A stretch of DNA of 64,000 bases, taken from positions 928,001 to 992,000 of the forward strand of contig CBDBOV010000006.1 of NCBI GenBank assembly GCA_965208575.1. Reading direction: 5' to 3'. Both the position numbers and the translations under genes were made by a program. The DNA is from Spirochaetia bacterium (GTDB lineage Bacteria > Spirochaetota > Spirochaetia > SZUA-6 > Bin103). Below the pieces are notes generated by a model. That model did not search any database. It worked only from the letters and a program-made list of their open reading frames with translations, and was not told where the DNA came from. This document shows positions 507 through 53,284 of this stretch, one piece after another; within the stretch, counting starts at the first letter, position 1; every line of letters begins with the position of its first letter.

Positions 507-671
507 GAGAGTATTGCGGAGCGAATCGCCGCTCCCTGGCTACTCTCGGGCCCGCAACGCGCGCAGCCAGGCAGAGTCAATTTGTGCAGGGCGCGGAGTG
601 TGACTCAGCCGGGTTCAACCGGGCTCACGCCGCGCCCACGCAAGGTTCTTTGAGTATCATTTGGACCTCCT
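507..671 (-). promoter_or_regulatory. Type-A SBP leader, copy 1 (SD + uORF MILKEPCVGAA* at 625-660 + two hairpins)
   Basis: AGGAGG-N5-ATG ATA CTC AAA GAA CCT..GCG GCG TGA; GAGAGTA..TACTCTC stem; homologous to 5 other copies. Confidence 0.8.
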
Positions 672-904
672 CTCTTGGGGCACAGGTGCCCTGCAAGGTG
701 TGCGTTCGCGTCCCACAGGGGACCATGCCACACCTGCGGTGACCGGTCAAGACACGCATCACACGCATCTCGTTTCGCGAGGCGCTCCAGGAGAGAGGCG
801 GGCAGGTTCCGCCACCGCGGCTCCTCGAGGTACGAGCACCTGCCGGCGGCGGCTACCGGCCCCGGGCCGCGCAGCCGGGGCCCGGGGAACCGCGCGCACG
901 CCCA

Positions 905-960
905 ACTGAAGCGCGCGGTCTCAAACCGACCTGGCGGCATCGGCATCGAGGCGTCCCCCG
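905..960 (-). repeat. Remnant of cassette 3' anchor (dppC C-terminus/downstream sequence)
   Basis: Reverse complement matches ctcg-tgccgatgccgccaggtcggtttgaga..gcgcgc found after dppC genes (e.g. ~39930, ~30075). Confidence 0.65.
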
Positions 961-997
961 CAACGAGGAAGGCGCGCACCGGCACTGCCGGCTACCC

Positions 998-1432
998 TCA
1001 GGCAAGGATGTCTCGTCCCTCCAGACCGAAGCAGGCAGCAGCATCGAGCATGCGTTGGTCATGACTGTAGACGGCGTCAAACCCGTTGTCGGCGGCGCAC
1101 GTCAGATGGAGCGCATCGGCCGCCCGCACGAACTCAGCGCCGGACACGGTCCTGACTCTCCGGCACGCAACTCGCACGAGTCGGTCGGTGACCGGAATCC
1201 ATCTCCACAGGCCCCGCTCCTCATCGCGACGCAGGCGCTCGAATACGGTGTGCAGCGCGTCGGCACCCAGGTTCCCTTCCCGCTCATGCCTCTTGAACGC
1301 CGCGAACAGCTCCAATCGGCCATGCGAGCAGCAGCTCAACCCCGACTTCCCGGCCAGCCACTCAAGCACACGCGGGCTGCCCGGCTCGTTGAGATAGCAC
1401 TTGGCGATGTATGAGGTATCGAGATAGGTCAG
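998..1432 (-). CDS. vapC: PIN-domain toxin (VapC family)
   Basis: Upstream extension gives (L)TYLDTSYIAK N-terminal PIN motif; RAADALHL and SHDQRM motifs; start uncertain (CTG at 1432 or 1438). Confidence 0.85.
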   Translation of the reverse strand: MTYLDTSYIAKCYLNEPGSPRVLEWLAGKSGLSCCSHGRLELFAAFKRHEREGNLGADALHTVFERLRRDEERGLWRWIPVTDRLVRVACRRVRTVSGAEFVRAADALHLTCAADNGFDAVYSHDQRMLDAAACFGLEGRDILA

Positions 1433-1434
1433 TG

Positions 1435-1665
1435 TCAGCGTTGCGACCGGTCCCTGGAGATCAACTCGGTGGAGTCCACGCCGACTGCCGGCATGCTCGC
1501 GGGATCGCGCGCGGGAAACGGCTGGCCGACGACTTCCTCATCCGAATACGGCTTGAGTAACGCGATGCGGGTTCCCCGATCGGTGACGATCACCGGCTGC
1601 TGCGTCGCCTGCCGCACGATCCTGCCGGTGCTCTCATGGAGTTCCCGAATCGAGACCACTCTCAC
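1435..1665 (-). CDS. Phd/YefM-family antitoxin
   Basis: MRVVSIRELHESTGRIVRQ..PVIVTDRG; directly upstream of the PIN toxin. Confidence 0.85.
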   Translation of the reverse strand: MRVVSIRELHESTGRIVRQATQQPVIVTDRGTRIALLKPYSDEEVVGQPFPARDPASMPAVGVDSTELISRDRSQR

Positions 1666-1884
1666 GACGGCCCGAAAAGTGACACATCGTGACACGCACT
1701 GTCAAGGGAGATCCGCACAGCGCCACAGCAAGGGCTCGCGCAAGAGAAACTCCCGAGTGCCACAGCCGTCAGGAAGCCGTCCGGCAGGTTGCGCCGACGT
1801 TCCCATCGCAGCGCGGAAAGTCGGGTACCATAGTCGGGTGTGGTGGATGGCCCCGCAACGAGGACGTGAGAGACCGGCACGGAG

Positions 1885-8189: not shown

Positions 8190-8385
8190 GCTTGGGGTTC
8201 GGATCGATGATAACGCGCCACGACGACAGGCAGCGCAGTAACCGGTTGGCGGTGACGTTCGGTGACCTCCGGTGACCTGACCGCCGAGTCGTTGACAGGC
8301 GCGCCGCGCCTATGCTAGCGTGCCTCACATGGGGTTCGACGGATGGTCATGAAGGGTCACGATGACAGGCACCGCAGTGACCGGT
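8190..8385 (+). repeat. Tandem ~126-bp promoter unit (TTGACA 8292, TGnTAGCGT)
   Basis: Near-identical to 22985-23160. Confidence 0.75.
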
Positions 8386-8590
8386 TTGTGGCCTTCCGCA
8401 TCCTCCTACGGCGTCGGCACCCCAAAGTAATTCCTTTCGCGGCTCGATACCCGGCCCGCACGTACCCCGGTCAACGCTTCACCCCCGCCCTAGCGGGCGA
8501 CGGCGCATGAATCGGAGCCGCCGTGGGTCGCTAGCCCTTCGACGTATGCCTCTTCCACTCACGACACCTTTCCGGTTTGTGCCGGCGCAC
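8386..8590 (-). mobile_element. Group II intron 5' remnant (GTGCG start at 8590, EBS1 retained)
   Basis: Closely similar to 24962-25166; deletion fused at tgtggc microhomology. Confidence 0.8.
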
Positions 8591-8757
8591 AGGAGGTGAA
8601 GATGATACTGAAAGAACCGCACGCGCGCGCGGCGTGAGCCCGGGTGATCCCGCCGACTCACACGCCGCGCGCTGTCAGTGTATTTGGCTCTGACTGGCCG
8701 TCCGTGTAGCGGGCGCGAGAGTAGCCAGGGAGCGCCAATCCGCTACGCAATACTCTC
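8591..8757 (+). promoter_or_regulatory. Type-A SBP leader, copy 2 (uORF MILKEPHARAA* at 8602-8637)
   Basis: AGGAGG, ATG ATA CTG AAA GAA CCG..TGA, GAGAGTA 8717 / TACTCTC 8751. Confidence 0.8.
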
Positions 8758-15329: not shown

Positions 15330-15527
15330 CCGGTCCGCGTACGAGGGGGTGCACGTGAAGAGGTAATCCATCCCGCGGCCCGCGATCGACGCCGTGGTCA
15401 ACTCGAAGCTGTCGCCCTCGTCGGAATCGCCTGCGCCGCACACGCGCGGACCGGCACACACGCCACGGGAACAGGCGAGGGAGCGGCACTTGAAGTGCGT
15501 GTTCTCGAAAACAGAGGAGATCAATTC
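15330..15527 (+). promoter_or_regulatory. Type-B SBP leader (SD + GTG AAG AGG TAA at 15355-15366; hairpin 15466-15507)
   Basis: Homologous to 57215-57445; degenerate promoter unit upstream (TTGACA 15214). Confidence 0.6.
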
Positions 15528-17315
15528 ATGAACCTTGTCACGTTCAGAACGTGCCTCGCCGTGCTGGCGAGCTTGGCCATTGCCGCAACCGGCGCCTGGG
15601 CCGGCGGCGAAGAGGAGCAGCCGGCCGCGGCGATGGAGAAGGAAATGGTGACCGACCCCACCACCGGCAAGGCGGTGACCGCGCCAGAGTACGGCGGGAC
15701 ATTGACCTATCCGTATGTCTTAATTGGCGAAACTACCGACCCCTTTGTTACTGGCCCCTATGCGGGCATGCTCATAGCCGGTGTCAATGAGAATCTCGCC
15801 GTCCCCAACTGGGCACTAGATAGGAAAGAATTCGCCTTCAATGGGCCTTACTTCCCTCTGTTTACTTGGACAGGGCAGCTGGCGGAAAGCTGGGAAACGC
15901 CCGACGACACAACGATCGTTTTCAACATCCGCAAGGGCGTTTACTGGCATAATAAGCCACCGATGAACGGTCGGGAGCTCACTGCCAACGATGTCGTATA
16001 TAGCCATCAGCGTATGTTGAGTCTGGGCGATTTCACCGAACCTCCTTTCCTAGCCAGGCCAGTTTACGAATTGCCATGGGAATCGGTAGAGGCCACCGAC
16101 AAATACACGGTTGTTATGAAGTTGAAGGAGCCAAAACTCGATGCGCTAGAGGGTATCATCACGACACCTGACTTCTGGATATTGCCTCCCGAGGTAATCG
16201 AGAAATACGGAGACTATACGGACTGGAAGAACGTGGTCGGCACCGGGCCCGTTATGCTGACCGACTACGTCGAAGGCGTCTCCAAAACCTGGACCAAGAA
16301 TCCTGACTACTGGGGCTACGACGAAAAATTCCCGGAGAACCGCTTGCCCTATATTGACAAGTTAGTGGGCCTGTATATGGCAGAAGAAGCGACCCGTCTA
16401 TCGGCACTGCGCTCGGGTAAGATTGATATGACACGCCTCTCTGGTGCTGAGATAAAATCCGTCGATGTAGTACAGAGCCTCCAGCGGACCAACCCCGAAC
16501 TCGCGATATGGCCATTTTACCTGCGGGCGGATGGCATCATACTGAACATTCGCAAGTCGCCCTTTGACGACATCAGAGTACGCCGCGCACTGCAGATGGC
16601 ACTGGACCTGGAGACGGTTAACGATACCTACTATGGCGGTTTCGCCCAGTGGCAACAACCTCGCTACATTGGCGCCAAGGGGTATTACACCCCATTTGAA
16701 GAGTGGCCCGCAGAGCTCAAGCAATACTACACCTACGACCCGGAAGGTGCTGAGAGGCTCCTTGATGAGGCAGGATATCCGCGCGGCGCGGACGGCGTCC
16801 GATTCAAGTTCGAACACATGCACCGTGACATCGCAGATTTGGGCTATGTAGAAATAGTCGCCGGCTACTGGGCTGATATTGGCGTTGATGCAGCGATTAG
16901 TGTTACGGACTGGGCGACTTTAGCCGCTGCTAAGTCAGAACATAACTATGAGTCGATTTATGGCTACATGGCCTGGGGGAACCTGACTTTCGGCATGGGA
17001 ATGTATGGCGCGGACCTCCTTTGGCGAAGGGCAAGCGTGGGGGCCGGAGTCGAGAACCCTGTGCTGGCCGCCGCCCAAGCTGCCTTTTTCGGTGCCACTA
17101 GCATCGATGAGCAGATGAAGGCGGCAAGAGAGTTTGGTATGGAAGCAATAAAGCAGCACTTTCAGATGTGGGCTCCTCTGGCTCCATTGTATCAGCACAG
17201 CCATCCGTGGGTCGTAGGTTTTAACGGTGAAACCATGCACTCAGTCTACCATGAGCAAAGCGTCCTCGTCCGCCTTTGGATTGATAGTGAGCTGAAGGAA
17301 TCCATGGGTTATTAG
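15528..17315 (+). CDS. ABC substrate-binding protein, family 5 (close paralog of 8781)
   Basis: Same motifs; GAGGAG RBS before ATG 15528. Confidence 0.95.
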   Translation: MNLVTFRTCLAVLASLAIAATGAWAGGEEEQPAAAMEKEMVTDPTTGKAVTAPEYGGTLTYPYVLIGETTDPFVTGPYAGMLIAGVNENLAVPNWALDRKEFAFNGPYFPLFTWTGQLAESWETPDDTTIVFNIRKGVYWHNKPPMNGRELTANDVVYSHQRMLSLGDFTEPPFLARPVYELPWESVEATDKYTVVMKLKEPKLDALEGIITTPDFWILPPEVIEKYGDYTDWKNVVGTGPVMLTDYVEGVSKTWTKNPDYWGYDEKFPENRLPYIDKLVGLYMAEEATRLSALRSGKIDMTRLSGAEIKSVDVVQSLQRTNPELAIWPFYLRADGIILNIRKSPFDDIRVRRALQMALDLETVNDTYYGGFAQWQQPRYIGAKGYYTPFEEWPAELKQYYTYDPEGAERLLDEAGYPRGADGVRFKFEHMHRDIADLGYVEIVAGYWADIGVDAAISVTDWATLAAAKSEHNYESIYGYMAWGNLTFGMGMYGADLLWRRASVGAGVENPVLAAAQAAFFGATSIDEQMKAAREFGMEAIKQHFQMWAPLAPLYQHSHPWVVGFNGETMHSVYHEQSVLVRLWIDSELKESMGY

Positions 17316-18774: not shown

Positions 18775-18965
18775 GACGGATCGATGATGACGCGCCATGA
18801 CGACAGTCAGCGCAGTGACCGGTTGGCGGTGACGTTCGGTGACCGCCGAGTCGTTGACATGCGCGCCGCGCCTATGCTAGCGTATCTTGCTTGGGGCGAC
18901 GGATGCCGATGAAGCGCCATGATGACAGGCAGCGCAGTGACCGGTTAGTTGTGACGCAGCCAGTG
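18775..18965 (+). repeat. Tandem promoter unit (TTGACA 18854)
   Basis: Homology to 8190/22985 units. Confidence 0.75.
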
Positions 18966-19140
18966 CACCCCCCCTCATTACGAACCGAGAAACAACTAAC
19001 CGCTCCGGCTGATCGCCCCGTACGCGCCTCCGCGCACCCCGTCCCCTCCACTACCGCCGCATCTGTACGTGGCGCCGGCTCGGCCATCGCTGAACCACAC
19101 CCGAAACAGACAACTTCCGTCTTGTCCAACTCACGAAAAG

Positions 19141-19300
19141 AGGAGGTCAAGATGATACTCAAAGAGCCGTGGGCGCGCGCGGCGTGAGCCCGGGTGAACC
19201 CGGCTGAGTCACACGCCGCGCGCTTTCCGAGAATTTGACTCAGACTGGCCGCCTGCGTTGCTCGTGGCCAGGGAGCGGAAATCCGCTCCGCAATACTCTC
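19141..19300 (+). promoter_or_regulatory. Type-A SBP leader, copy 3 (uORF MILKEPWARAA* at 19152-19187)
   Basis: AGGAGG + uORF + hairpin; 5' arm of the second outer stem is eroded. Confidence 0.8.
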
Positions 19301-22787: not shown

Positions 22788-23180
22788 GCTGTTGACAGGG
22801 TGGCCGCGCTCGCAAGAGAGTGCACCGTTAGGGGTTCGGCGAATGCAGATGATGCGCCCCGACGACCGCCAGCGCGGTGGCCGGTGATGTTCGGTGACGT
22901 CGGTGACGTCGGTGACGTCGGTGACGTCCGAGTCGTTGACAGGATGGCCGCGTCCATAGCAAGCTTGCCTCGCCTCGGCTTCGACGGATCGATGATGACG
23001 CGCCATGACGACAGTCAGCGCAGTGACCGGTTGGCGGTGACGTTCGGTGACCGCCGAGTCGTTGACAGGCGCGCCGCGCCTATGCTATCGTGCCTCACTT
23101 GGGGTTTCGACGGATGGTCATGAAGGGTCACGATGACAGGCAGCGCAGTGACCGGTTGGTTGTGGCGCAGCCAGTGCATC
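22788..23180 (+). repeat. Three tandem promoter units (TTGACA at 22792, 22936, 23062)
   Basis: Spacings 144 and 126 bp; the 18-bp excess equals two extra CGGTGACGT 9-mers. Confidence 0.8.
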
Positions 23181-23559
23181 CTGCTACCCCCCCCCCCACT
23201 TTTTCGAACCGAGAAACAACTAACCGCTCCGGCTGATCGCCGCGCACGCGGCCCCGCGCACGCCGTCGCCTTCTCCACCGCCGTAGCTGTCGGTGGCGCC
23301 GGCTCGGTCGATCGCCAGACCGCCCGCACCCATCCCGTCGACTCAGGCGGTGCCGGATCCCCGCCTGCGACTAACTGCGCGCAAAACCCTCCGCCTGCGT
23401 TGGCGGCCATTCAGACTCACTGCTGCTCAGACCACCGCCACGCGTGGCGTTGTAACGCAGATCCCGACGTAGATCTAGAGAAGAGTTGGAGTAGGGATGA
23501 CCATCGCTGATCACCCCCTCCACAGATCCCGGCGAGCGGGACTACCGCACCGGGCTCCT

Positions 23560-24803
23560 GCCTCAGGGATGACGCCAAGGCGGTGCAAGGGATAGGGATG
23601 GCACCCTCGGGGCGGTGGCAACCAGTGGTCAAGCAGGCGGCTCATCCGCTCCCAGGTAAGCCGGGTTTTCTGACTGCGCCGCCGCATCGACCGATACCAG
23701 AGCCGACCAACCCGGACGCGGAACAGGCGGAGTGCGCGGGAGTTCGTGGGCACCCCGTATTAACGCAGGTGCCCACTCACAACCGAGCGCAGCCAGCTTC
23801 CCACCTCCGGGACCGGATCGTGCAGGCGCCGCCGAAGCTCGGTCTTCACCAGCCAGCCGTGGTCGATGGCATCGAAGAACCCACGGATGTCCATGTCGAG
23901 CACCCAGGTCACCTTCCGTGTCAGCAGGCCCACATAGAGCGCGTCCAACGCATTGTGCTGGCTGCGCCCCGGTCGGAACCCGTAACTGAACCCGAGGAAG
24001 TCGGTCTCGTAGATGGTGTTCAGCACCTCGACTGTCGCACGCTGGACGATCTTGTCTTCCAGCGCCGTCACGCCGAGCGGTCGTTGCCGCCCGTCGCTCT
24101 TGGGGACGAACACCCTCCGCACCGGCTTCGCCCGGTACGCTCCTCGCTTGAGCCGTCCGGAGAGGTCCAGGAGGTTGCCCTCCAGGTCCCTTCCGTGCTG
24201 CCGCCACGTCACCCGGTCCACGCCCGGCGCGGCTTCCCGCCCCCGGCGGAAGTACGCCTCCCGGAGGATCGCGGGGTTGTCGACGTGGTGCATGAGCGCG
24301 GTGAACCGCAGCGTCCTATCCCGTCGCGCTGCTTGACGTATCCGCTCCAGCGCACTGTGCACGCCCTAGCAGCCGGTGGCGAAACTCCAGCTGCATTCGA
24401 GCGGCGAATGCATCCCGGCTGGCTGCGTTGCTCCTCGCTCACATATGGCCGATATGCTCGTTCGTCGCGCCTTGCCAGCCGGGCGCCTCGCCGCTCTCGG
24501 TGCGACGCCGGGTTCCGCCACGGGCTGCTAGTGCCGGCGCGGTGTCCGGGGCGCGCTTTGCTGGTGCGGATTCCCTTTGGCCAGGCCCCTTCCCTCCACC
24601 CGCTCCGCGGTTGGGGCGCTACCGGCCGGCGTGGCCGTAGGTGCTCCCTTGGCTGTGTCCGGCGTTTCCGCCTGCGTGCCCGTGTAGGGTTCACCATAGC
24701 CGCGCCGCCTGCGGCAGCTCCCGTCCTTGTTCGCGGGTTTCCCAGGTACCCCGAAGGGCGGCCGGCAGGCCGGGGGCCTGTCCGACTTCCCAGCGCCGTT
24801 CAT
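23560..24803 (-). pseudogene. ltrA: Group II intron RT/maturase pseudogene
   Basis: MNGAGKSD..AKGN, AAPGVD, PKSDGRQRPLG..EDKIVQ, SYGFRPGR, DIRGFFD; deletion removes PQG/YADD region; X-domain HPYP in another frame; MITE insertion. Confidence 0.88.
24366..24531. mobile_element. MITE with ~20-bp terminal inverted repeats and CTAG ends, inside intron ORF
   Basis: ctagcagccggtggcgaaac / gttccgccacgggctgctag (2 mismatches); internally palindromic. Confidence 0.8.
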
Positions 24804-25166
24804 CGTCGGCGTCCGTCCTTCGACTTCCCGACACGGCCTGCGGCGCCATCCGCCACCGGCGAAGCTGGGATCTCCCGGCTCCCGCGCAAGGTGTTTCCGT
24901 ACGTGCCCGGGGTCTGTGACCGCGCAGGGTCCCGTGGCGCCTCGCGATATCGGCGTCCCGGGTGTGGCCTTCCGCATCCTCCTACGGCGTCGGCACCCCA
25001 AAGTAATCTCTTTCGCGGCTCGATACCCGGCCCGCACGTACCCCTGTCAACGCGTCACCCCCGCCCTCGCGGGCGACGGCGCATGACTCGGGGCCGCCGT
25101 GGGTCGCTAACCCTTCGACGTATGACTCTTCCATTCACAACACCTTGCCGGTTTGTGCCGGCGCAC

Positions 25167-25334
25167 AGGAGGTTCGAATGATACTCAAAGAGCCGCACGT
25201 GCGCGCGGCGTGAGCCGGGGTGAACCCGGATGAGTCACACGCCGCGCGCTCTTAGTGAATTTGACTCAGACTGGCCGTCTGCGTTGCGGGCATGAGAGTA
25301 GCCAGGGAGCGGCAAGTCGCTCCGCAATACTCTC
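25167..25334 (+). promoter_or_regulatory. Type-A SBP leader, copy 4 (uORF MILKEPHVRAA* at 25178-25213)
   Basis: AGGAGG + uORF; GAGAGTA 25294 / TACTCTC 25328. Confidence 0.8.
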
Positions 25335-25358
25335 GAGAATCAAGATCCGGAGTTACGC

Positions 25359-27161
25359 ATGAAGTTTGTAAAAATTAGAATGACCTTCGCGTTTGCGTTG
25401 GTCCTCGTAATGACCGCAACCGGCCTCTGGGCCGCTGGCGCAGAAGAGGAGCCGGCAGCCGCTGCCGACAAGAAGTATGTGACCGACCCCTCCACCGGCA
25501 AGGCGGTGGTGGCGCCAGAGTATGGCGGGACATTGACCTACGCCTCGCATAATATAGTTCCGCATACTGACGCCTATTTCCATCACCACCCGGGAGAACA
25601 TGTCTCCAGTGTTGTAGAGAAGCTTACTATGCTGGACTGGGCAGCGCCCAGGGACGTATTCAACATTAGAACACATACTTCAACCGCGCCTCTGTCTCTC
25701 TATAAAGGGCACCTGGCGGAGAGTTGGGAAAAGCCCGACGACACAACATTTATCTTCCACATCCGCAAGGGCGTTCACTGGCATAATAAGCCACCGATGA
25801 ACGGTCGGGAGCTGACTGCCGATGATGTGGTATATAACTATCACCGTATGACGGGTCTGGGCAGCGGCTTCACGGAACCCAGCCCCACTTGGACCGCAAA
25901 TTTGTACCTGGTCGAATCGATAACGGCCACCGACAAATATACGGTCGTCTTCAAGCAGACGAAGGTAGACCCCACTGCGCTGTTTACTTTCACTCAACAC
26001 ATGAATTGGATATACCCCCCCGAGGTCATCAAGCAACACGGCGACATGAAGGATTGGAGGAACTTGGTTGGCACGGGGCCCTATGAGCTGACTGACTGGG
26101 TCGAGGGCAGCTCTGTCACCTGGACCAAGAATCCCGACTATTGGGGATTCGATGAAAAATACCCACAGAACCGCTTGCCCTACGTTGACAGTGTAACGAA
26201 GCTGATTATGCCAGACGCGGCAACACGGCTGGCGGCACTGCGCTCGGGAAAGGTTGATGCCCTGGGTATGCCTTTCGGCGACAGTCAATTAGGGTCTATC
26301 GACCAGGTAGATAGCCTCAAGCGGACCAATCCCGAAATCGTGCTGGAGCCGATGTCATATCGGTCGGAAACGTCTTGGGTTGTTAACCCGAATGTACCAC
26401 CCTTTGACGACAACCGGGTGCGCCACGCACTGCAGATGGCACTGGACCTTGATTCAATTAACAATACCTACTGGAAGGGTTTTGCAGAAACGACACCTAT
26501 GGGGTATTTGGGGAGTGGTTTGGTCGGGTATGTCACCCCGTTCGAAGATTGGCCTAAAGAGATCAAGCAATACTACAGGTATGACCCGGAAGGGGCTGAG
26601 AAGCTCCTGGATGAGGCTGGTTATCCCCGCGGCGCGGACGGCATTAGATTCAAGACCGTTCTGGATGTGAGCGTACCATGGCAGGTTGCAGCCTATCACG
26701 AATTAGCTGCCTCCTACTGGGATGCGATTGGCGTTGATGTAGAGATTGTGGAGAACGACGGCCCTACTGTCCGTGCGAAGCGAAAGGAAGGTACTTTTGA
26801 GATTCAGGCTTTTATTTCGGGGAACGACTGGGACCCCCTGGAGCAGATTAAGCAGTTTTACACTCCTGCTGCTTCACCGTATAATACTCCCAACGTAAAG
26901 GATCCGGCTTATGACGCCCTGGTTGCACCGGTCTTAGCCGCCGATACCATTGAGGAGCGGCAGAGGCTGATTAAACCGGTAGAAAAGTACATTAATGAAC
27001 AGCACTGGTATATATGGGGTAGTCGAGTTCCACAGTTTCACGCGCTCCAGCCGTGGGTTATAGGTTACAACGGTGAAACCGGCCTGGGAGACATGGACCG
27101 TGTGGTCCTCCTTGCCCGCCTCTGGATTGATAGTGAGCTGAAGGAAGCAATGGGTCATTAG
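25359..27161 (+). CDS. ABC substrate-binding protein, family 5
   Basis: Family motifs. Confidence 0.95.
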   Translation: MKFVKIRMTFAFALVLVMTATGLWAAGAEEEPAAAADKKYVTDPSTGKAVVAPEYGGTLTYASHNIVPHTDAYFHHHPGEHVSSVVEKLTMLDWAAPRDVFNIRTHTSTAPLSLYKGHLAESWEKPDDTTFIFHIRKGVHWHNKPPMNGRELTADDVVYNYHRMTGLGSGFTEPSPTWTANLYLVESITATDKYTVVFKQTKVDPTALFTFTQHMNWIYPPEVIKQHGDMKDWRNLVGTGPYELTDWVEGSSVTWTKNPDYWGFDEKYPQNRLPYVDSVTKLIMPDAATRLAALRSGKVDALGMPFGDSQLGSIDQVDSLKRTNPEIVLEPMSYRSETSWVVNPNVPPFDDNRVRHALQMALDLDSINNTYWKGFAETTPMGYLGSGLVGYVTPFEDWPKEIKQYYRYDPEGAEKLLDEAGYPRGADGIRFKTVLDVSVPWQVAAYHELAASYWDAIGVDVEIVENDGPTVRAKRKEGTFEIQAFISGNDWDPLEQIKQFYTPAASPYNTPNVKDPAYDALVAPVLAADTIEERQRLIKPVEKYINEQHWYIWGSRVPQFHALQPWVIGYNGETGLGDMDRVVLLARLWIDSELKEAMGH

Positions 27162-27168
27162 GGGTTTT

Positions 27169-27754: not shown

Positions 27755-27879
27755 ACCCCTTATGGCTGAGCTCAGGGAAAAAGGGAGCTGGGGAGGCTCA
27801 GGCTTCCCAGCTCCCGATTTTGATTAACCAACTGAACAGAGAATGGCGGGACTTGTATGACGAATTATGACGAATAGGG

Positions 27880-28130
27880 ACGCCATTGCGAGGAGTCCCT
27901 TCTTACTGTCTTTGCGAGTCCTTCCCAGAAGGACGATGAAGTAATCTTGGAGGCGATGAGATTGCCGCGCTGCGCTCGCATTGACGGAGGAAAGGGGGCG
28001 ACGAGATTGCCACGCCCTACCGTACTGTCATTGCGAGGAGCCTCAGCGACGAAGCAATCTGGTGGAGAAGCGACGGGATTGCCACGCCTTCGGCTTGTCC
28101 TGAACGAAGTTAAGGGGCTCGCAATGACAA
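27880..28130. repeat. Cluster of REP-like palindromes (gtcattgcgag..gaagcaatct / gagattgcc..ctcgcaatgac)
   Basis: Read directly; single units also at ~10678-10714 and ~17403-17440. Confidence 0.7.
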
Positions 28131-28143
28131 GGAATACAGTGAC

Positions 28144-29151: not shown

Positions 29152-29169
29152 AGGAAGAAAAACGGGAAT

Positions 29170-30102: not shown

Positions 30103-31153
30103 GAGAGCGCGCCTGCGTCGGCCCAGGTGGCTGCGCGCCCGGGCGATCGATCACTTGGCGCCGGCCCCCTTCGGCTTCGCCACCCGCTGCGTGCGCGGCC
30201 GACCGGCAACCCGCGGTATCACACCGGATGCACGGTGACCCCCACCCGTGGCAGCCTCCCTGCCGCCACAGCTGGCATGTAGCTCCCGGCCCGCGACAGG
30301 GACGTCGTGGGCCGGGAGCCTGTTGGCTACTCCGGAGGCGCGCCCGGAACGCGGCCGACCAGGTCGACAAGCGCCGCGCTCGGTACGGGCGTGACGTGGC
30401 CGGTCAGCTCGAAGCAGCGCCTGGCATCGTAGTGTCGGCGCATCATCGGGCAGCGCAGACCGAGTCGGCGGAGTGTACAGGTACCTCATCACACGACTGA
30501 CGCGTCGTCCGTTCGTGGGCCCCGTCCGACGCGGTCCGCCGCGCGCACAGACACAGGCGTTCCCGCGCCATGGAAGGCGCGGGCGAATTGGGCGCGTCCG
30601 GAGTCACGTGCACCATCACGCTCACCAGCGCCGAGTCAGGGAACCCGGTGACCGAACCGGTCAGTCTGAAAGTAGCGACTGGCATCGCAGGGTCTGTGCA
30701 TCATCGTAGCGAAGGTCGGAGGCCACCACCCGGCAGTAGCCGGCGGCTGGGAGTCCACGCCACACGAGCCGTGGACCCGCTCCCCCACCGACCGTCGGCA
30801 GGCCGCTCGGGGAACAACACCACTGACCTCGGGGTGAGTCCGGCGGGGAAGCCGGGCACCAGGTATACTCGGCAATCCGCTGCGCATCTGACGCGGTCCC
30901 CCGCGCGTACACGACAGGCGCACCGCGCCAAGGATGGCGAGCGTGCGGCTGCCCTGTGCACAACTTGGGGCGCGGCGTCCGGAGTCCGCGACGATTCAGC
31001 CCAGCGGCCGCCGGGCCCTCGGGGAATCGCCACGGCTCCTGCCAATGTGCCCACGCCTCTCGTCGGTCGCTTCGCACGAAACCGTTGCCGAAGCGGCGCG
31101 CCCAGGGATCTTCCGCACCAGAACCTGAGAGGCTGTTGCCTGATAACGCGAAT

Positions 31154-33701: not shown

Positions 33702-35249
33702 TTACAACATTCCTAGCTCCGGTGGTGTCCATTGCGTGTCCAAATCCAACGGCCAAACCGGTCGAGGGAGCCCTTTCCAGGAGAAGCGTGCCAGCACTGG
33801 CGACGTCAACCCCGCCGCATCGACTTCGAGAATCTGCTCGTGGCGATAATACTCATCAAAACCGGCACGAAAATGGCCACGAGATTTGATTGTCAAGGAA
33901 CGGAAACATCCGATGTCCAGAGAAAAACTCTCGAAAAAAGCAGGATCGGCACACTGCACCCGACGAGAACAGACAATCATGGTCAATCCTCCGCAGCGCA
34001 CCAACGCTGCACGGCCAAGTTTCGCTGTGCGTCCCCGATAAATCCCTCGTCTCCCAACAATGTTGCCATCGGACAGCCCCAGCACCTCTATTTCAGCCGG
34101 AACGGCTCGTCCCTGAGTGTCCGCGTTGGTTGCATTGAAAACGACCGGCAATCGTGCTCCGACCCCCGCCTCGTGGCAACGGGCGGCGACAACAGGGTCA
34201 ACGAAATTCCCGTACAGTGCATGTTGCACATTGGCCGCCAACAAACCTTCCAGAATATCCGTGGTGTTGCCGCGGCCTCCCCCACCTGGATTGTCAGCCA
34301 CATCGGCCAGACAAACCGTTGGCCCTCCAGGGCTCTGTCCGGCCTCTACTGCCCGCCGGATCGCTTCCTCAAGAGGAGTCAGGTGGAAACGAAAACGTTC
34401 CCGATCCGCCCACGCCATTTCTGCCAGTTTCAGGGCTAACTGTTTCGGTTTGCGGCCGGAACCATAGGTCAGGATGGTCAAGCAATTCTCCGGAGTATCG
34501 CCAAAAGCAAAACCGCCGACTACTGAAACCAACGGCAACTCCGGGCTGATCCAGCGTTGGCCTTCTGCAATCATATCCGCATAAGCGCCGTGAGCGGTGA
34601 GCAGCGTCACTGACGGAGGAGTGATCGGCATTCGAATCCAGGTTTTCTCCAGTCTTTCTCCGGAGAGCAACCGGCGCAGCAAATGAGCAGCTTCGGCAGC
34701 CCGCTCTCTTGCATCGACATGCGGATTGGTCCGGTAGGAAATTATCGCATCCACACTATGCACCATCCGCTCCGAGATGTTGGCGTGCAGATCGACTGTG
34801 GCGATCACCGGTTTGTTCATGCCCACAGCGTCACGGGCCAGCGCGTAAATTTCCCCATCTGGATCCGTTCCTCCGGTCGCTGTCATGGCCCCGTGATTGC
34901 TCACAAAAATCCCATCTAATGGCCCTGCCTCAGTCAGCATTGCCCGCATCCGAGCCATGCATTCATCCACAAAAGATTGCTCTGCCGGTCCTCCAGGTTC
35001 TGCACCAGCGATCACAATCGGCACTGGCTCCCAGGCACCGGCAGCGCTCATCGCTTCGATAAAGCCAGGAATTTCCGCAGGCATTGCCGGTGCCGATTTG
35101 GCTGCCTCTACCAATATTGCTTTGCCCTCCAGATAACCAAAATCCTTTTCTGTGGTCACCGGCGCGAAGGCGTTGCTCTCCAGATGCATCCCCAGCATCG
35201 CAATCCGGGGTTTCTCAACACTCATAAGCTCTGCGCTGACTGTCGTCAT
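33702..35249 (-). CDS. M81 family metallopeptidase (MlrC-like)
   Basis: ESNAF, HGAM, DLHAN, YRTNPHVD, DNPGGG, KSRGHFRAGF. Confidence 0.9.
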   Translation of the reverse strand: MTTVSAELMSVEKPRIAMLGMHLESNAFAPVTTEKDFGYLEGKAILVEAAKSAPAMPAEIPGFIEAMSAAGAWEPVPIVIAGAEPGGPAEQSFVDECMARMRAMLTEAGPLDGIFVSNHGAMTATGGTDPDGEIYALARDAVGMNKPVIATVDLHANISERMVHSVDAIISYRTNPHVDARERAAEAAHLLRRLLSGERLEKTWIRMPITPPSVTLLTAHGAYADMIAEGQRWISPELPLVSVVGGFAFGDTPENCLTILTYGSGRKPKQLALKLAEMAWADRERFRFHLTPLEEAIRRAVEAGQSPGGPTVCLADVADNPGGGGRGNTTDILEGLLAANVQHALYGNFVDPVVAARCHEAGVGARLPVVFNATNADTQGRAVPAEIEVLGLSDGNIVGRRGIYRGRTAKLGRAALVRCGGLTMIVCSRRVQCADPAFFESFSLDIGCFRSLTIKSRGHFRAGFDEYYRHEQILEVDAAGLTSPVLARFSWKGLPRPVWPLDLDTQWTPPELGML

Positions 35250-35580: not shown

Positions 35581-35840
35581 TTGACATGGTCAGGCGAGCC
35601 TGTGACGATAGGGAGTTCGGGGATTGAACGGATGCCGACGAAGCGCCATGATGACAGCCAGCGCAGGGGCCGGTTGGCGGTGACGCGACCGGTGAATCAT
35701 CCCCCCCCCCCTTACCTTACGAGCCGAGCAACAACTAACCGCCCCGGCTGATCGCTCCGTACGCGACCCCGCGCACGCCGTCGCCTTCACCACCGCCGTA
35801 GCTATCGCTATCGGTGGCGCCGGCTCGGTCCATCGCCGAA
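35581..35840 (+). repeat. Promoter unit (TTGACA 35581), C11 tract and conserved mid-leader
   Basis: Homology to 18854-19090 and 23062-23320. Confidence 0.7.
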
Positions 35841-35928: not shown

Positions 35929-36060
35929 AAGGCGGTTCAACATGGTACTCAAAGAGCCGTAGGCGCGCGCGGCGTGAGCCGGGGCGAACCCGGATGAGTC
36001 ACACGCCGCGCGCTCTCAGGAACTTGACTCGGACTGGTCGCCCGCGTTGCGGGCGCGAAT
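35929..36060 (+). promoter_or_regulatory. Type-A SBP leader, copy 5, degenerate (MVLKEP*; second hairpin deleted)
   Basis: SD AGGCGG; codon 7 TAG; GAGAGTA..TACTCTC block absent. Confidence 0.75.
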
Positions 36061-36083
36061 AGAGATCGACACAGGAGCTATGT

Positions 36084-37904
36084 ATGCAGATTGTACAATT
36101 CACAAGGACCTTCGCGGTTGCGTTGGTCCTGATTCTGACCGCAACCGGCCTCTGGGCCGCTGCCGCAGAAGAGGAGCAGGCAGCCGCTGCCGACAAGAAG
36201 TACGTGACCGACCCCACCACCGGCAAGGTGGTGGTGGCGCCGCAGTATGGCGGGACATTGACCTTCGTCATGAAGGTGGAGCCTCCGAGTGCTGACCCCG
36301 CGTTCGGCGCTGGGTCGTCAAGGGGCGCCGATGGTGTTGCAGAGAAGCTAGGCATCATGAACTGGGGACTAGATAGGGACGAATGGGACTTCACAAGTTT
36401 CTCCTTCCCTTTCTCTGTCTATAAAGGTCACCTGGCGGAAAGCTGGGAAATGCCCGACGACACAACCATCATCTTCCACATCCGCCAGGGCGTTCACTGG
36501 CATGATAAGGCACCGATGAACGGTCGGGAGCTAGATGCATACGACGTCGAATACAACTATCACCGCTATTTGGGTCTGGGCAGCGGCTTCACCGAACCGC
36601 CTGAAGGCTACGCTGGCTCACTCAAAGGCATGACAATATTCGAATCGGTAGAAGCCACCGACAAATGGACGGTTGTTGTTAAGCTGAAGCGGCCACAGGT
36701 CGCGGGGTCGGTGACTCAGACTACCATCGGCGACTGGCCTGTTTTTATGATGCCCCCTGAGGTAATCAAGGAACACGGCCACGTTAAGGATTGGAGGAAT
36801 CTGGTCGGCACCGGGCCCTATATGCTGACTGACTGGCTCGACGGCAGCTCTATGACCTGGGAAAAGAATCCTGACTACTGGGGCTTCGACGAAAAATATC
36901 CGGACAACCGCCTACCCTATATTGACCAGTTAAGGGGCCTGATTATGACAGAAGCCGCAACAATTCTGGCGACACTGCGCACGGGTAAGGCTGATTACGT
37001 AGGTCTCGCTGGCGCCGCTGAATCCGTCTATATCAAGGACCGAGAAAGCCTCAGCCGGACCAACCCCGAAATCGAATGGTACCCGTGGGCGTATAGGTCG
37101 GAAAGTTCTTTTGGTTTCAACATGGGCGGAGGCGAGGCGAGACCGCCCTTTGACGACGTCAGGGTGCGCCAGGCAATGCAGATGGCACTGGACCTTGAGA
37201 CGATTAACAATACCTTCTTTAGGGGTTTTGCCAAGTGGCAGCCTCGGGGCATGATAGGGGATGGCGTCAAAGGGTATAACACCCCATTTGAAGAGTGGCC
37301 CGAAGAGGTCAAGAAAGCCTATATGTATGACCCGGAAGGGGCAGAGGCGTTGCTTGATGAGGCTGGCTATCCGCGTGGCCCGGACGGCACGAGATTTAAG
37401 GTCGCCCTGGGACACTACGAGTTCTTCAGTTTAGACTATACACAATTAGCTGCCGCCTACTGGGCTGACATTGGCGTTCATGTCGACACTACCGTAAGGG
37501 ACCGAAGTGCTCATATTGCTGCTGAACGTGAACATACTTACGGAGATATGGTCACTGCGATTGCTGGCAACGACCCTTATGGCCCTCTCCTCCCGCTTGA
37601 ATGGTATTACTCAGGAGGCTACAGGAACCCCGCGAATCTCAACGATCCCGAATACGACCTCCTGTATGAAGCAGCCCGAGACGCTACCACCCTTGAGGAG
37701 CAGCAGAGGGCGGTTAAAGAGGCGGATATGTGGCTTATAAAGAACCACTTGTATGTATGGGGTCCTATAGATCCAAGGTTTGTCGCCATCCAGCCGTGGC
37801 TCATAGGCTATAACGGTGAATTAATGTTAGGACGGGATGACCGTAAGGCCTTGTTCGCCCGGCTCTGGATTGATAGTGCGCTGAAGAGAGAAATGGGCTT
37901 CTGA
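36084..37904 (+). CDS. ABC substrate-binding protein, family 5
   Basis: Family motifs. Confidence 0.95.
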   Translation: MQIVQFTRTFAVALVLILTATGLWAAAAEEEQAAAADKKYVTDPTTGKVVVAPQYGGTLTFVMKVEPPSADPAFGAGSSRGADGVAEKLGIMNWGLDRDEWDFTSFSFPFSVYKGHLAESWEMPDDTTIIFHIRQGVHWHDKAPMNGRELDAYDVEYNYHRYLGLGSGFTEPPEGYAGSLKGMTIFESVEATDKWTVVVKLKRPQVAGSVTQTTIGDWPVFMMPPEVIKEHGHVKDWRNLVGTGPYMLTDWLDGSSMTWEKNPDYWGFDEKYPDNRLPYIDQLRGLIMTEAATILATLRTGKADYVGLAGAAESVYIKDRESLSRTNPEIEWYPWAYRSESSFGFNMGGGEARPPFDDVRVRQAMQMALDLETINNTFFRGFAKWQPRGMIGDGVKGYNTPFEEWPEEVKKAYMYDPEGAEALLDEAGYPRGPDGTRFKVALGHYEFFSLDYTQLAAAYWADIGVHVDTTVRDRSAHIAAEREHTYGDMVTAIAGNDPYGPLLPLEWYYSGGYRNPANLNDPEYDLLYEAARDATTLEEQQRAVKEADMWLIKNHLYVWGPIDPRFVAIQPWLIGYNGELMLGRDDRKALFARLWIDSALKREMGF

Positions 37905-50170: not shown

Positions 50171-50185
50171 ACTCGCCGTTTTCCT

Positions 50186-51196
50186 CTATTCATACCGAAT
50201 CCTGGGGTCCAAGAGAGCATAAATCGCGTCGATCATGAGATTGATCACCAAAACCGCGGTAGCAAAAATCATGTTTATTGCGGAGACTACCGGATAGTCT
50301 CTGCTATCGAGGGCATCCACAAACAAACTGCCTAGCCCCGGCAGAGCGAATATTTGCTCCAGGATAACGGAGCCACCTACCAGGAGGGGTAGCTGCAGGC
50401 CGACGAGCGTAACTACCGGGATGAGGGCATTCTTGATGCCGTGCCGCATGACAACTACCCGTTCCCTGAGCCCCTTCGACCAAGCCGTCCTGATATAGTC
50501 TTGCCTGAGCACCTCCAGCATCATGGTGCGCGTCATCCGCATGGTGCTGGCAGCAAGGGCTGTCCCCAGAATCAGGGCCGGAATGAGGAACATCCCCAGA
50601 TTCCCCAGCGGGTCTTCCTTGAAGGGAATCAACTCTACCGGTGGCGACCAGCCCCACCAGAGAGCCGGGTAAAGCATGACCATTGTTGCCAGCCAGAAGT
50701 TCGGTGTTGCCAAGCCGATGACGGCGGCGGTGCGCCCGACGTAGTCGGCGGCGGTATCCTGGCGGATCGCCGAGTAGACGCCGACCGGCAAGGCTATGAC
50801 GAGCCCAATTACGATTGCCAGAATGCCAAGCTCAATGGTGACTGGCAATCTCCCGATCATGACCTCCTCTACCGTCACGCCACCGCCAAACAGCGATACG
50901 CCGAAGGTGCCCTGGAGGAGACCTGTAAAGCGGGACTCACCGGTAAGCCGATCAGGGGTCGGCAACACTCCTATCCAGCGTCCATACTGCACGTAGACAG
51001 GCACGTCCAATCCAAGCATACGCTCCAGAGCTTCGCGGTCTATGTCGCCCGCGGACTGGAATCCAGGGCCCATCTCAGCCACCATTGTGTCTATTACATC
51101 GCCGGGGATAAGGCGGACCGTAACAAAGACTATGATGGTCAATATGAACAGGGTGGGGATTATAAGCAATAACCGCCTGATGAGATAGGTTCTCAT
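50186..51196 (-). CDS. ABC permease DppB-like
   Basis: Family motifs. Confidence 0.95.
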   Translation of the reverse strand: MRTYLIRRLLLIIPTLFILTIIVFVTVRLIPGDVIDTMVAEMGPGFQSAGDIDREALERMLGLDVPVYVQYGRWIGVLPTPDRLTGESRFTGLLQGTFGVSLFGGGVTVEEVMIGRLPVTIELGILAIVIGLVIALPVGVYSAIRQDTAADYVGRTAAVIGLATPNFWLATMVMLYPALWWGWSPPVELIPFKEDPLGNLGMFLIPALILGTALAASTMRMTRTMMLEVLRQDYIRTAWSKGLRERVVVMRHGIKNALIPVVTLVGLQLPLLVGGSVILEQIFALPGLGSLFVDALDSRDYPVVSAINMIFATAVLVINLMIDAIYALLDPRIRYE

Positions 51197-51276
51197 GTGT
51201 TGTTAGTGCCGTAGGTATGGGAGCTGGGAAGCGCGCTCACAAGCGACCGCCACCCAGCTCCACAGGAGTACGCCTG

Positions 51277-53091
51277 CTAATTTCCCGTCATTTCTTTCTT
51301 CAGCGCACTATCGATCCAGACGCGAGAAAAGTGGGCATGACGGTCAGTGAAGCCAAGACCCATTTCACCGGCAAAACCCTCCACCCACGGCTGGCTCGCG
51401 GAAAAAAGGGCGGAGCGTGGTTTAACTAGGCCATAGTGCTCCCTTACAGAGATTTCATCGGCCTGTCGCTGATAGCCAATATGCTCCTCCGTGTCCGTGG
51501 TTTCAACGGCGGCATAATACAGGGCTTCGATACGCGGATCGTCCGCTTTTGTGGCGCTACTGTTATCAATGTTCTGGATCGCCTGACCTACCTCTTGTAG
51601 TCTTCCGCGGTAGGATCCATATCCAGCGCCCCATATCTCCCACTCCACCGTGTCCGCGCGAAAGGCAGCTCCACCCTCAGCTTCGCTATGAATATTAAGC
51701 TCGCTATCAACGCCAATGGCGTCGAAGTAACCCATGACGATTTCTACATAGGTCGGATCGTACCTCACGAGATTGCTCACCGTGATCTTGAATCTATAGC
51801 CGTCGTCGCCGCGAGGATATCCGGCCGCATCGAGCAACGCTTCTGCTTCATCCGGTCGATACTCATACTCACGCTTGACCTCGTCGGGCCACTCTTCATA
51901 AGGCCAGGCATACCCTTTGGCAGTTTGATGGAATATCCCATAAGGTGATGGATCTGCCCAACCCTTAAAGAAGGTAGCGGAAATTGCTTCGCGGTCCACT
52001 GACATCTGCAGTGCCTTGCGCACATTGATGTCGGCAGTGAGCGGACGAGATTGATTAAATACCAAGGTGCCCGGTATGAAGCTATATGCGGGCCACACCT
52101 CGAGTTCAGGATTGCTCTTCTGGAGGCTCTCTAGATTGTCGAGATTCGTTATGTGAGCGTCACCGGTGTTACTCAGCATATCAATCCTGCCCGTGCGCAA
52201 TGCTGCCAGACGTGTTGACTCGTCCGGCATCTTCAGGGCCCGTAACTCGTCAATATAGGGCAGGCGGTTCCCGAATTTTTCATCAACACCCCAGTAGTTG
52301 GGATTCTTCTCCCAGGTTGCCGAGCTGCCCTCGACGTGGTCGGTCAGTCGATAGGGGCCGGTGCCGACCAGGTTCCTCCAGTCCTCAAAGCCACCTTCTT
52401 CCTCGAATACCTCGGGGGGGTATATCCAAACCATGCTGTGCAACAGCGACTGCACCACATTCACCTGAGGCCTCGTCAGCTTGAGCTCAACCGTCCATTT
52501 GTCGGTGGCCGTTACAGAGAGGAACTCCAGATTATAAACTATGGAACGCTGGGGGCTAGGTCCGGCTTCGGCGAAATCACCCAGACCAAAATAGCGGTGA
52601 AAGTTCCATACGACGTCATGAGCATCGAACTCCCGACCGTTCACCGGCGGCTTATCATGCCAGTTAACGCCCTGCCGGATGTTCCAGATGAACGTCGTGT
52701 CGTCGGCCATTGACCAGCTTTCGGCCAGACCGCCTCTGTACATCTCCGGGCCCGTATAATCCCAGTTCATGGTACCGTGCTTTTCCCTGGGTAGTGCCCA
52801 GTCGGCAATGGTCATCCTCTCTATAACGCTACTGATGAAGTGAGGCGCCCAGCCACCCGCCGACCACACGTCAGTACTCTCAGGAAAGTTCCTGGTGGCC
52901 CAGGTGAGTGTCCCGCCATACTCTGGCGCGGTCCACGTCTGGCCGGTGGCGGGGTCGAACACCGTCTCTCTGTCGGCTGCGGCGGCGGCTGCCGGCTCCT
53001 CGTCTGCGCCGGTGGCCCACAGGCCGGTCGCGGTCAGCATCATGACCAGCGCAACCGCGAAGATCATTCTGATGCTTACGATATATTTCAT
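51277..53091 (-). CDS. ABC substrate-binding protein, family 5
   Basis: Family motifs; ATG 53091. Confidence 0.95.
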   Translation of the reverse strand: MKYIVSIRMIFAVALVMMLTATGLWATGADEEPAAAAAADRETVFDPATGQTWTAPEYGGTLTWATRNFPESTDVWSAGGWAPHFISSVIERMTIADWALPREKHGTMNWDYTGPEMYRGGLAESWSMADDTTFIWNIRQGVNWHDKPPVNGREFDAHDVVWNFHRYFGLGDFAEAGPSPQRSIVYNLEFLSVTATDKWTVELKLTRPQVNVVQSLLHSMVWIYPPEVFEEEGGFEDWRNLVGTGPYRLTDHVEGSSATWEKNPNYWGVDEKFGNRLPYIDELRALKMPDESTRLAALRTGRIDMLSNTGDAHITNLDNLESLQKSNPELEVWPAYSFIPGTLVFNQSRPLTADINVRKALQMSVDREAISATFFKGWADPSPYGIFHQTAKGYAWPYEEWPDEVKREYEYRPDEAEALLDAAGYPRGDDGYRFKITVSNLVRYDPTYVEIVMGYFDAIGVDSELNIHSEAEGGAAFRADTVEWEIWGAGYGSYRGRLQEVGQAIQNIDNSSATKADDPRIEALYYAAVETTDTEEHIGYQRQADEISVREHYGLVKPRSALFSASQPWVEGFAGEMGLGFTDRHAHFSRVWIDSALKKEMTGN

Positions 53092-53115
53092 GGTTTTCTC
53101 CACAAATGTGTTCTT

Positions 53116-53284
53116 GAGAGTATTGCGGAACGGATTGCCGCTCCCTGGCTACTCTCGCGCCCGCAACGCAGACGGCCGGCCAGACAGAGTCAGATTTGTG
53201 AAGCGCGCGACGTGTGACTCACCGGGTTCACCCCCGCTCACGCCGCGCGCGTGCGGCTCTTTGAGTATCAATTTGCACCCCCTC
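53116..53284 (-). promoter_or_regulatory. Type-A SBP leader, copy 6 (TTG-ILKEPHAR; 2-nt deletion shifts past the usual stop)
   Basis: GAGGGGG SD, TTG at 53271, both hairpins present. Confidence 0.75.

Follow-up and report, generated by a model that had tools for sequence, protein, structure and literature searches.

A small open reading frame, very likely translated, and a hairpin close a multi-copy leader of solute-binding protein operons in sponge-associated Spirochaetia

The window analyzed in this work, a 64-kb stretch of contig CBDBOV010000006.1 (positions 928,001 to 992,000, forward strand), belongs to the 6.5-Mb genome (67% G+C) of a sponge-associated Spirochaetia bacterium. Six copies of a module were found in it, in which a small open reading frame (ORF) with its own Shine-Dalgarno (SD) site, here called SD2, runs into a G+C hairpin upstream of genes for solute-binding proteins (SBPs). 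The module forms the 3' third of a leader of approximately 440-660 nucleotides (nt), counted from a promoter-like site to the SBP start, and this leader represents a new, genus-specific and highly multi-copy family that is absent from Rfam. As argued below, the module is probably the last stage of a translation-sensing control region of an uncatalogued kind.

Copies, downstream genes and host range of the leader

A previous sequence-only reading of the window had listed four intact and two degenerate copies of the small ORF together with their peptides. All six positions and peptides were borne out by direct reading of the sequence and by a covariance model built in this analysis (R1), which provided the module coordinates below, and AGGAGG at 5-nt spacing was indeed present in the four intact copies. 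The degeneracy of copies 5 and 6 was traced to a TAG at codon 7 plus loss of the 3' domain, and to a TTG start plus a 2-nt deletion, respectively. With regard to the extent of the element, the module described earlier is real, but only the last third of the leader had been seen.

479..672, minus strand: copy 1 (R1); small ORF (uORF2) at 660-625, MILKEPCVGAA
8590..8784, plus strand: copy 2 (R1); uORF2 at 8602-8637, MILKEPHARAA
19140..19328, plus strand: copy 3 (R1); uORF2 at 19152-19187, MILKEPWARAA; 3' arm of P2 and 5' arm of P3 deleted
25166..25361, plus strand: copy 4, the representative, from SD2 to the SBP ATG (R1, 209 bits)
25167..25172, plus strand: SD2 (AGGAGG) of copy 4, 5 nt upstream of the small-ORF start
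25178..25213, plus strand: uORF2 of copy 4, MILKEPHVRAA and TGA (sequence reading; coding-type variation at codons 3-6)
25335..25361, plus strand: P4 region of copy 4, with spacer, SBP SD site and ATG (25359); a weak hairpin in many copies according to minimum free energy (MFE) folds
35930..36086, plus strand: copy 5 (R1); weakened SD, MVLKEP followed by TAG at codon 7 (35942-35962); P3 domain deleted
53089..53283, minus strand: copy 6 (R1); TTG start at 53271, the 2-nt deletion giving a 40-codon frame

Four of the SBPs encoded in the window matched Pfam family PF00496 with 200-232 bits, and the permeases encoded downstream of them matched PF00528 and OppC_N (Opp/Dpp type). The genes under the leader are family-5 SBP/ABC-transporter operons, i.e., they serve uptake and not biosynthesis.

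The genome-wide collection of copies proposed by the sequence-only reading gave a number far beyond chance. Indeed, a profile of the six copies found 63 places in the genome, 57 of them above 60 bits. In nearly all cases, an SBP gene that comprises about 600 codons and encodes a strongly conserved signal peptide begins about 180 nt downstream. A simple criterion for ORFs assigned to 43 of the 63 copies an intact downstream SBP ORF of at least 560 amino acids with the conserved signal-peptide motif; the remaining SBP ORFs were shorter, frame-shifted, or missed by this criterion. The SBPs behind these 43 leaders are old paralogues, with a median amino-acid identity of 47% between their mature parts (range 28-83%). 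The leaders are much better conserved than the SBP genes, with a median nucleotide identity of 70%, which was uncorrelated with the divergence of the SBPs (r = -0.005, 903 pairs), suggesting that the leader is kept by selection, by gene conversion, or by both.

The host range of the leader is one genus of sponge-associated Spirochaetia. When the best 62 candidates per genome were scored with R1, 41 genomes of the order yielded the element in 8 cases, all of them within the genus of the window; these included 7 of the 10 other species of the genus, with up to at least 62 copies per genome. No element was detected in 13 genomes of the sister genus nor in 17 other genomes of the order. Of 151 genomes sampled evenly across the class, only those of the window's genus gave matches, apart from one marginal match in another family (22.6 bits, E 5.9e-4), the single exception to the absence of the element from 181 further genomes of the class. 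Exact-pattern matches in public genomes fell in Spirochaetia bacterium records of metagenome-assembled genomes and in two short contigs from sponge metagenome bins.

The earlier statement that the motif belongs to no known family held when Rfam was searched. At gathering thresholds, Rfam 15 found only two group II intron matches in the window and none for the module, and a search with eight leaders at E up to 10 returned five chance-level matches, all of 18 bits or less. The string 'MILKEP' occurred in no paper of the searchable literature, whose scope excludes supplements, and searches on leader peptides with solute-binding proteins and on sponge spirochaetes brought up nothing on the element.

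Coding signature of the small ORF and structure of the module

The consensus of uORF2 is MILKEPHARAA, 11 codons. Codons 8-11 form the helix P1 described below and cannot be judged for coding constraint on that account; the coding test concerned codons 3-6 (CTC AAA GAA CCG). Among 51 aligned copies of this genome, 4, 9, and 39 non-consensus letters were counted at the first, second, and third positions of these codons; at the two-fold sites (AAR, GAR) 16 of 17 changes were A to G, and at the four-fold sites (CTN, CCN) every alternative base occurred. The second data set consisted of copies from four other species, selected by a 14-nt motif of the 3' domain and not by the ORF. This motif gave 102 matches, against 0 for its reversed control; 80 were retrieved, and the ORF region was present in 78 of them, with 5, 6, and 54 changes at the three positions of codons 3-6. 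The synonymous bias reported earlier for the first codons thus corresponds to a coding-type pattern at codons 3-6 in both data sets. Given that these codons vary almost only at synonymous third positions, the small ORF is very likely translated, with L-K-E-P under selection, and the selection on nascent-chain sequence that characterizes arrest peptides is therefore apparent at codons 3-6.

Start and length were also well preserved. In this genome, 46 of 57 copies had a canonical start, 49 an SD-like site, and 36 both a canonical start and exactly 11 codons, the corresponding figures in the other species being 74 of 78 for the start and 61 of 78 for the length. A short ORF with its own SD site and start, as used by attenuators, is therefore present. 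Codon 7 looks unconstrained: in 44 copies it encoded H (31), Y (4), R (4), W (2), D (1), Q (1), or C (1), and TAG was found there in 8 of the 78 copies from other species and in 2 of this genome. As a separate observation, M-K-L-K-E-P-H (M-K-L-K-E-P-K in locus L066) was found inside the SBP coding region of loci L063, L066, and L073 of other species, some 780-800 nt downstream of the small ORF; with the pattern used, chance would give about one such stretch.

In the structural analysis, RNAalifold applied to the 51-row alignment recovered P1 and P2 only, and the other helices were set by eye and then counted. In coordinates of copy 4, the proposed elements are as follows.

25201-25212 with 25238-25249, plus strand: P1, 12-bp G+C helix (RNAalifold; 96.4% of cells paired)
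25215-25229, plus strand: P1a, variable and sometimes deleted tip of P1
25232-25237 with 25262-25267, plus strand: PKa, GAGUCA in the internal loop of P1 with UGACUC (88-94% paired, 2 pairs changed on both sides)
25271-25275 with 25301-25305, plus strand: PKb, CUGGC with GCCAG in the internal loop of P3 (88-91% paired)
25276..25292, plus strand: P2, hairpin CGYCYGC-GUU-GCGGGCR (core 97.6% paired, 3 pairs changed on both sides)
25294..25334, plus strand: P3 (GAGAGUA/UACUCUC) around P3a (GGAGCGG/UCGCUCC), with unpaired GCCAGG and GCAA conserved

The 5' arm of P1 is made of the last four sense codons and the TGA of the small ORF, which in copy 4 (25211-25213) overlaps the last two bases of the arm, and the helix consists of G and C only. 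The location of the stop codon in the 5' arm of a hairpin, as originally described, was thereby confirmed, and the helix is conserved. So is the alternative pairing noticed earlier between TGAGTCA and TGACTC, which is missing in copy 2: the UGACUC partner lies about 25 nt beyond GAGUCA. The compensatory change reported for copy 1 is equally real, a G-C to C-G replacement at columns 40/88. P3 was 89.3% paired, with 4 pairs changed on both sides, and P3a 87.3% paired, while PKb was kept with other letters in the divergent copies L007, L029, and L042. Altogether, the 49 proposed pairs were paired in 90.7% of 2406 cells (51 rows), compared with 31-51% for slid controls, and both-side changes occurred in 15 pairs, compared with 7.3 ± 2.1 in shuffles, a value reached by none of 500 shuffles, which amounts to moderate covariation.

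MFE folds of six copies recovered P1, P2, and P3/P3a (L024 without P3), and most of them showed a weak hairpin containing the SBP SD site and ATG, the stem letters of this P4 region varying from copy to copy. When the ORF was masked to 12 nt beyond its stop in five copies, GAGUCA paired with UGACUC as a hairpin in the predicted folds. A competing pairing between codons 2-3 of the ORF (AUACUC) and the 5' arm of P3 was discarded, as matching changes were absent from L005, L006, and L028, with P3 changed, and from L008 and L018, with codon 3 changed. No U-tract terminator was found from the ORF to the SBP start, P1 being followed by UUC, UUU, or GUC, and no sense-strand terminator-like site was found in the leaders. 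The attenuator initially proposed is thus supported only in part: there is neither a U-tract terminator nor a run of regulatory codons, and masking changes only the GAGUCA/UGACUC pairing in predicted folds.

The upstream two-thirds of the leader and its inserted elements

Conservation upstream of SD2 continues for 450-520 nt in many copies. The 5'-most part is built from a unit of about 125 nt, present singly or in tandem, with up to five repeats in one leader (locus L074, 626-1134); each unit has TTGACA, an 18-nt spacer and TAnnnT, and also carries the first small ORF. The order after the tandem units is first small ORF (MKRHDDSQRSDRLAVT...), poly-C run, conserved block, and C-rich tract. The first small ORF, located in the window at positions 18909, 23120, and 8349, varied mostly at third positions (76 changes vs 45 and 52 at positions 1 and 2). 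The poly-C run ranged from 4 to 55 C across 28 copies, i.e., among paralogues and species; such runs are candidate slippage sites with proline codons in every frame, so that a slippage-prone repeat altering the frame or length of a leader ORF, as in pil1-type leaders (see below), is found among paralogues and species. The conserved block that follows contains TAA and TGA stops in the two other frames, and the C-rich tract extends over 250-300 nt with 24-33 C vs 10-21 G per 60 nt. A rho gene is present in the genome.

8360-8591, minus strand: group II intron remnant
18854..19139, plus strand: upstream leader of copy 3, with -35 TTGACA at 18854 and -10 TAGCGT at 18878-18883
18909, plus strand: ATG of the first small ORF of copy 3 (MKRHDD...); conserved block at 18998-19015 with stops in the two other frames
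18968-18974, 23187-23197 and 35701-35711: poly-C runs of the first small ORFs (7, 11 and 11 C)
23062..23484, plus strand: upstream leader of copy 4, separated from SD2 by an intron; ATG of the first small ORF at 23120
23485-25166, minus strand: group II intron of 1,682 nt, antisense in the leader of copy 4 (RF02005 match at 24910-25129, 176 bits)

A promoter scan listed the site of copy 4 (23062-23091, TTGACA-18-TATCGT with TG before it) and did not call that of copy 3, whose TAGCGT fails the -10 rule of the scan. Just upstream of an extra TTGACA site, four repeats of a 10-bp, GACGTCGGTG-like unit were observed at 22893-22932.

The reading frame of copy 3 is unbroken from ATG 18909 to the TGA within P1 (19185-19187), 92 codons without a Pfam or NCBIfam family, and the first ORF of copy 4 is off-frame. 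More generally, the first ORF entered the conserved block in frame 0 in 12, frame 1 in 13, and frame 2 in 3 of 28 copies, the off-frame ORFs stopping at a TGA or TAA inside the block. From the block to the start of uORF2, the distance corresponded to frame 0 in 18 copies and to frame 2 in the other 9 of the 27, frame 1 being unrepresented. No stops were present in the 18 frame-0 copies, whose distances took 17 different values between 78 and 399 nt. Among 22 other loci, one of which repeats a copy of this genome, frames 0, 2, and 1 were found in 15, 5, and 2, respectively. Frame 2 terminates at the TGA within an ATGA overlapping the start of uORF2, a usual restart arrangement, and only frame 1, which is nearly avoided, would run through P1 in the wrong register. 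In the body of the long frame (an 87-nt block, 19 copies), 55, 46, and 31 changes were counted at positions 1, 2, and 3. The long upstream frame was accordingly rejected as a conserved protein, with no third-position excess and no Pfam or NCBIfam family. This lack of amino-acid constraint suggests that being read, and not the encoded content, is what seems to matter. A loose anchor search that tolerated 4 mismatches was discarded, its 103 places being mostly random. Upstream RNA was not seen to sequester SD2 in 5 folded leaders.

The group II intron of copy 4 is inserted exactly between GAAGA and the AGGAGG of SD2. In the genome, 9 of the 17 matches to RF02005 adjoin a leader copy, and the first 25-60 nt of the intron were found at the same junction in about 22 of 57 leaders; the antisense of SD2 plus small ORF thus looks like the intron homing site. 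Inside the intron copy, a 166-nt insert was observed at about 24366-24531: RNA-library contigs from three runs link 24365 to 24532 through ATAT, and the stretch of about 170 nt recurs at some 40 other genomic places with 72-98% identity. This insert resembles a small, non-autonomous mobile element. Contigs of four sponge metatranscriptome runs from one study contained leader sequence, SD2 of sister copies included; summed depth was 200-505 in leader bins vs 0-59 over most of the intron (23500-30200 covered), figures that concern multi-copy sequence with possible DNA carry-over, and from which no start, end, strand, or level is readable.

Other features of the region were also recorded. The family-5 SBP genes at 15495-17315 and 57413-59269 have no module match. 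A first-ORF-type unit is located at 56894-57106, before the second of them, indicating that leader variants without the MILKEP module exist. A 13-bp G+C-rich hairpin and then GATTTTGATT (27783-27815, plus strand) lie in the 980 nt that separate the SBP gene from the first permease gene in the operon of copy 4; this arrangement has the appearance of a canonical terminator or attenuator. Finally, a metallopeptidase of the M81 family (DUF1485 plus MlrC_C; 33702-35249, minus strand) is encoded among the transporter operons, which would fit peptide uptake and use.

Proposed mechanism, related systems and competing readings

On balance, we lean towards the reading in which the SD2 ORF and hairpin constitute a translated, ribosome-dependent terminal module of a long leader before approximately 60 paralogous SBP operons. 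Ribosomes would reach the module in frame from the long upstream frame, by termination on the TGA of the ATGA overlap and restart, or by direct initiation at SD2. They would then synthesize (M)ILKEPxARAA and stop at the UGA that closes the 5' arm of P1, and each passage, or a pause at this UGA, would melt P1. On the freed 3' side, GAGUCA could pair with UGACUC, altering the fold that links P1 to the pseudoknotted P2/P3 domain. The most likely output would be Rho-dependent transcription read-through of the untranslated gap, given the lack of a U-tract terminator, the rut-like C-rich tract upstream, and the presence of rho; SBP translation initiation may be affected as well.

Several observations weigh against this reading. 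In a replicate of 77 rows from other species, 94.3% of cells were paired and both-side changes occurred in 5 pairs, with 3.2 expected and 50 of 500 shuffles reaching this value; the rows are nearly identical, so that the replicate adds no covariation support. Masking of the ORF did not alter P3/P3a or the SBP start hairpin in 4 of 5 predicted folds, so that these folds show no route to the SBP ribosome-binding site. Individual modules can also disappear on their own: L014, L037, and L052 have lost the 3' domain, and four nhmmer matches (C3_114691, C4_396307, C6_43919, and C6_791804) cover only the 3' part of the leader profile. SD2 had a predicted unpaired probability of 0.37-0.62 in the 5 of 10 chosen leaders that match the promoter pattern, and direct initiation at such an accessible site would blunt any dependence on upstream translation. 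As for the small ORF, 11 of 57 copies have no canonical start and keep the ILKEP letters, at least two of them (L016 and L044) still preceding intact SBP genes, which suggests either that the start was lost recently or that the letters matter also as RNA. At codon 2, the third base is fixed (A in 50 of 51 copies) and the residue varies (I, V, T, L, A, K), a non-coding pattern. Moreover, the substitution counts given above are cells and not independent events, as subfamilies share substitutions; a rough hand count of separate events gave about 25 synonymous vs about 17 non-synonymous, the chance expectation for the synonymous share being 22%.

Different aspects of the proposed mechanism recall known systems. 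Classical attenuators, such as the trp, his, leu, and thr leaders (Trp_leader and His_leader in Rfam), combine tandem regulatory codons with a U-run terminator. The leader described here resembles them in that an SD-led mini-ORF overlaps the first arm of a hairpin whose other arm has a competing pairing, but it has no tandem regulatory codons, no U-run terminator, and no Rfam match, and it precedes transport genes. TnaC of the Escherichia coli tna operon is an arrest leader peptide that acts near its stop codon, the output being Rho-dependent termination, and in tna the stop is followed by an unstructured site of Rho entry. Both cases share a short leader ORF, conserved residues in the C-terminal region, and termination close to regulatory RNA. 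Nevertheless, there is no sequence likeness, arrest is a feature of TnaC and only hypothetical for the module, and here a G+C helix follows the stop and the C-rich tract lies upstream. The Salmonella mgtA and mgtCBR leaders, with the small ORFs mgtL, mgtM, and mgtP, are under Rho-dependent control and also sense Mg2+ or ATP via the RNA. Both cases show an extended leader that holds two or more small ORFs, proline codons that serve as an input through translation speed, and Rho-dependent read-through as the likely output; they differ in sequence, which is unrelated, and in the Mg2+/ATP sensing by RNA and the single-copy loci of the Salmonella systems.

The pil1 leader of Streptococcus gallolyticus provides a further comparison. 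In it, a GCAGA repeat sets the length or frame of the leader ORF, and the long form of this ORF allows the ribosome to reach and destabilize a stem-loop (Danne et al., 2014, PMC3894217). In both leaders a slippage-prone repeat sets the frame or length of the leader ORF, and a stem-loop precedes the structural genes (PMC3894217). The differences are that our repeat is poly-C and not GCAGA, that the stem has no U tract and is followed by a pseudoknotted domain, that a second, SD-led entry makes the last 11 codons independently translatable with a conserved peptide, and that approximately 60 operons per genome are concerned and not one, the spirochaete side of the comparison being a prediction.

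This likeness underlies the first competing reading, a phase-variable leader of the pil1 type, which we regard as possible though rather unlikely. It overlaps the favoured reading and differs in the controlling input: the frame of the first small ORF, set by the poly-C tract, would be the main input, only in-frame ribosomes would traverse the C-rich tract to the stop within P1, a putative terminator or pause hairpin that they would destabilize, SD2 would be a back-up entry, and each transporter operon would be switched on or off randomly and heritably. The spread of poly-C lengths, the distribution of first-ORF frames, the stops awaiting off-frame ribosomes in the block, and the contrast between copy 3, in frame to the P1 stop, and copy 4, off-frame, all agree with it, as does the geometry of the pil1 leader (PMC3894217). 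However, P1 has no U tract, and the conserved SD2, with a good start and predicted accessibility, should open P1 regardless of the upstream frame; furthermore, the antisense intron or its remnant severs about 22 of 57 copies from the upstream part, and these copies keep SD2 and the small ORF. It is less probable still that the structured RNA itself is the regulator, with P2, PKb, P3, and P3a acting as a riboswitch or as a site for a protein or small RNA, and the ORF helping folding or shielding it. The compensatory helices, two pseudoknot-type pairings, and invariant unpaired bases seen in this genome speak for such a role, together with the nhmmer matches restricted to the 3' part, but about 60 operons with SBPs only 28-83% identical would have to share one ligand, the domain is limited to one genus, some copies have lost its 3' part of the module while retaining the ORF and P1, and such a role would not account for selection on the ORF at the peptide level.

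Two further readings appear very improbable. A classical amino-acid attenuator, in which a stall at codon 7 (His, Tyr, Trp, Cys, Arg) keeps P1 open and tunes each transporter, would take advantage of the position of this codon just before the 5' arm of P1, where a held ribosome would cover the arm, and of its differences between copies. Codon 7 is nevertheless a single codon and no run, it is His in most copies, with the others one- or two-base neighbours of CAC, and it is replaced by TAG in the copies mentioned above; the downstream genes, in addition, serve uptake and not biosynthesis. The lack of a codon run and of a U-tract terminator argues that this is not a classical amino-acid attenuator. 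Similarly, the 11 codons could scarcely encode the conserved C-terminal end of a trans-acting small protein, about 90-170 amino acids long and encoded before each SBP gene. In favour of such a protein, the long frame is uninterrupted and in register in 18 of the 27 copies of this genome and in 15 of 22 loci elsewhere, and its N-terminal MKRHDDSQRSDRL part is fairly conserved, with the third-position variation reported above for the first small ORF; against this stand a body without amino-acid constraint, a length that varies several-fold, a third of copies out of frame, the conserved internal SD and ATG, and the absence of Pfam or NCBIfam matches.

A more far-reaching reading can also be envisaged, which we consider speculative and rather unlikely. 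Each of the approximately 60 uptake operons would be gated by its own translation relay, the poly-C run setting whether the Rho tract is crossed, the routes converging on a conserved arrest-type peptide with its stop in a helix, and this helix setting, by way of the two pseudoknots, the fold of a new RNA domain that decides SBP expression; the outcome would be a heritable, combinatorial on/off repertoire of transporters across the genome.

To our knowledge, selection on the peptide sequence is recognized in only a few leader peptides, nearly all of them from cultured model bacteria. The hundreds of natural variants of this module, about 60 per genome in at least 8 species, amount to a natural collection of mutants that covers the peptide, the placement of the stop inside a helix, and the pseudoknots, and the apparent homing of a group II intron at the module site offers a natural test of a leader cut off from its upstream two-thirds. 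If the module does gate expression, it would show one-by-one control of a very large set of peptide/oligosaccharide transporters in an uncultured symbiont, and would add a translation-coupled RNA family lacking in Rfam.

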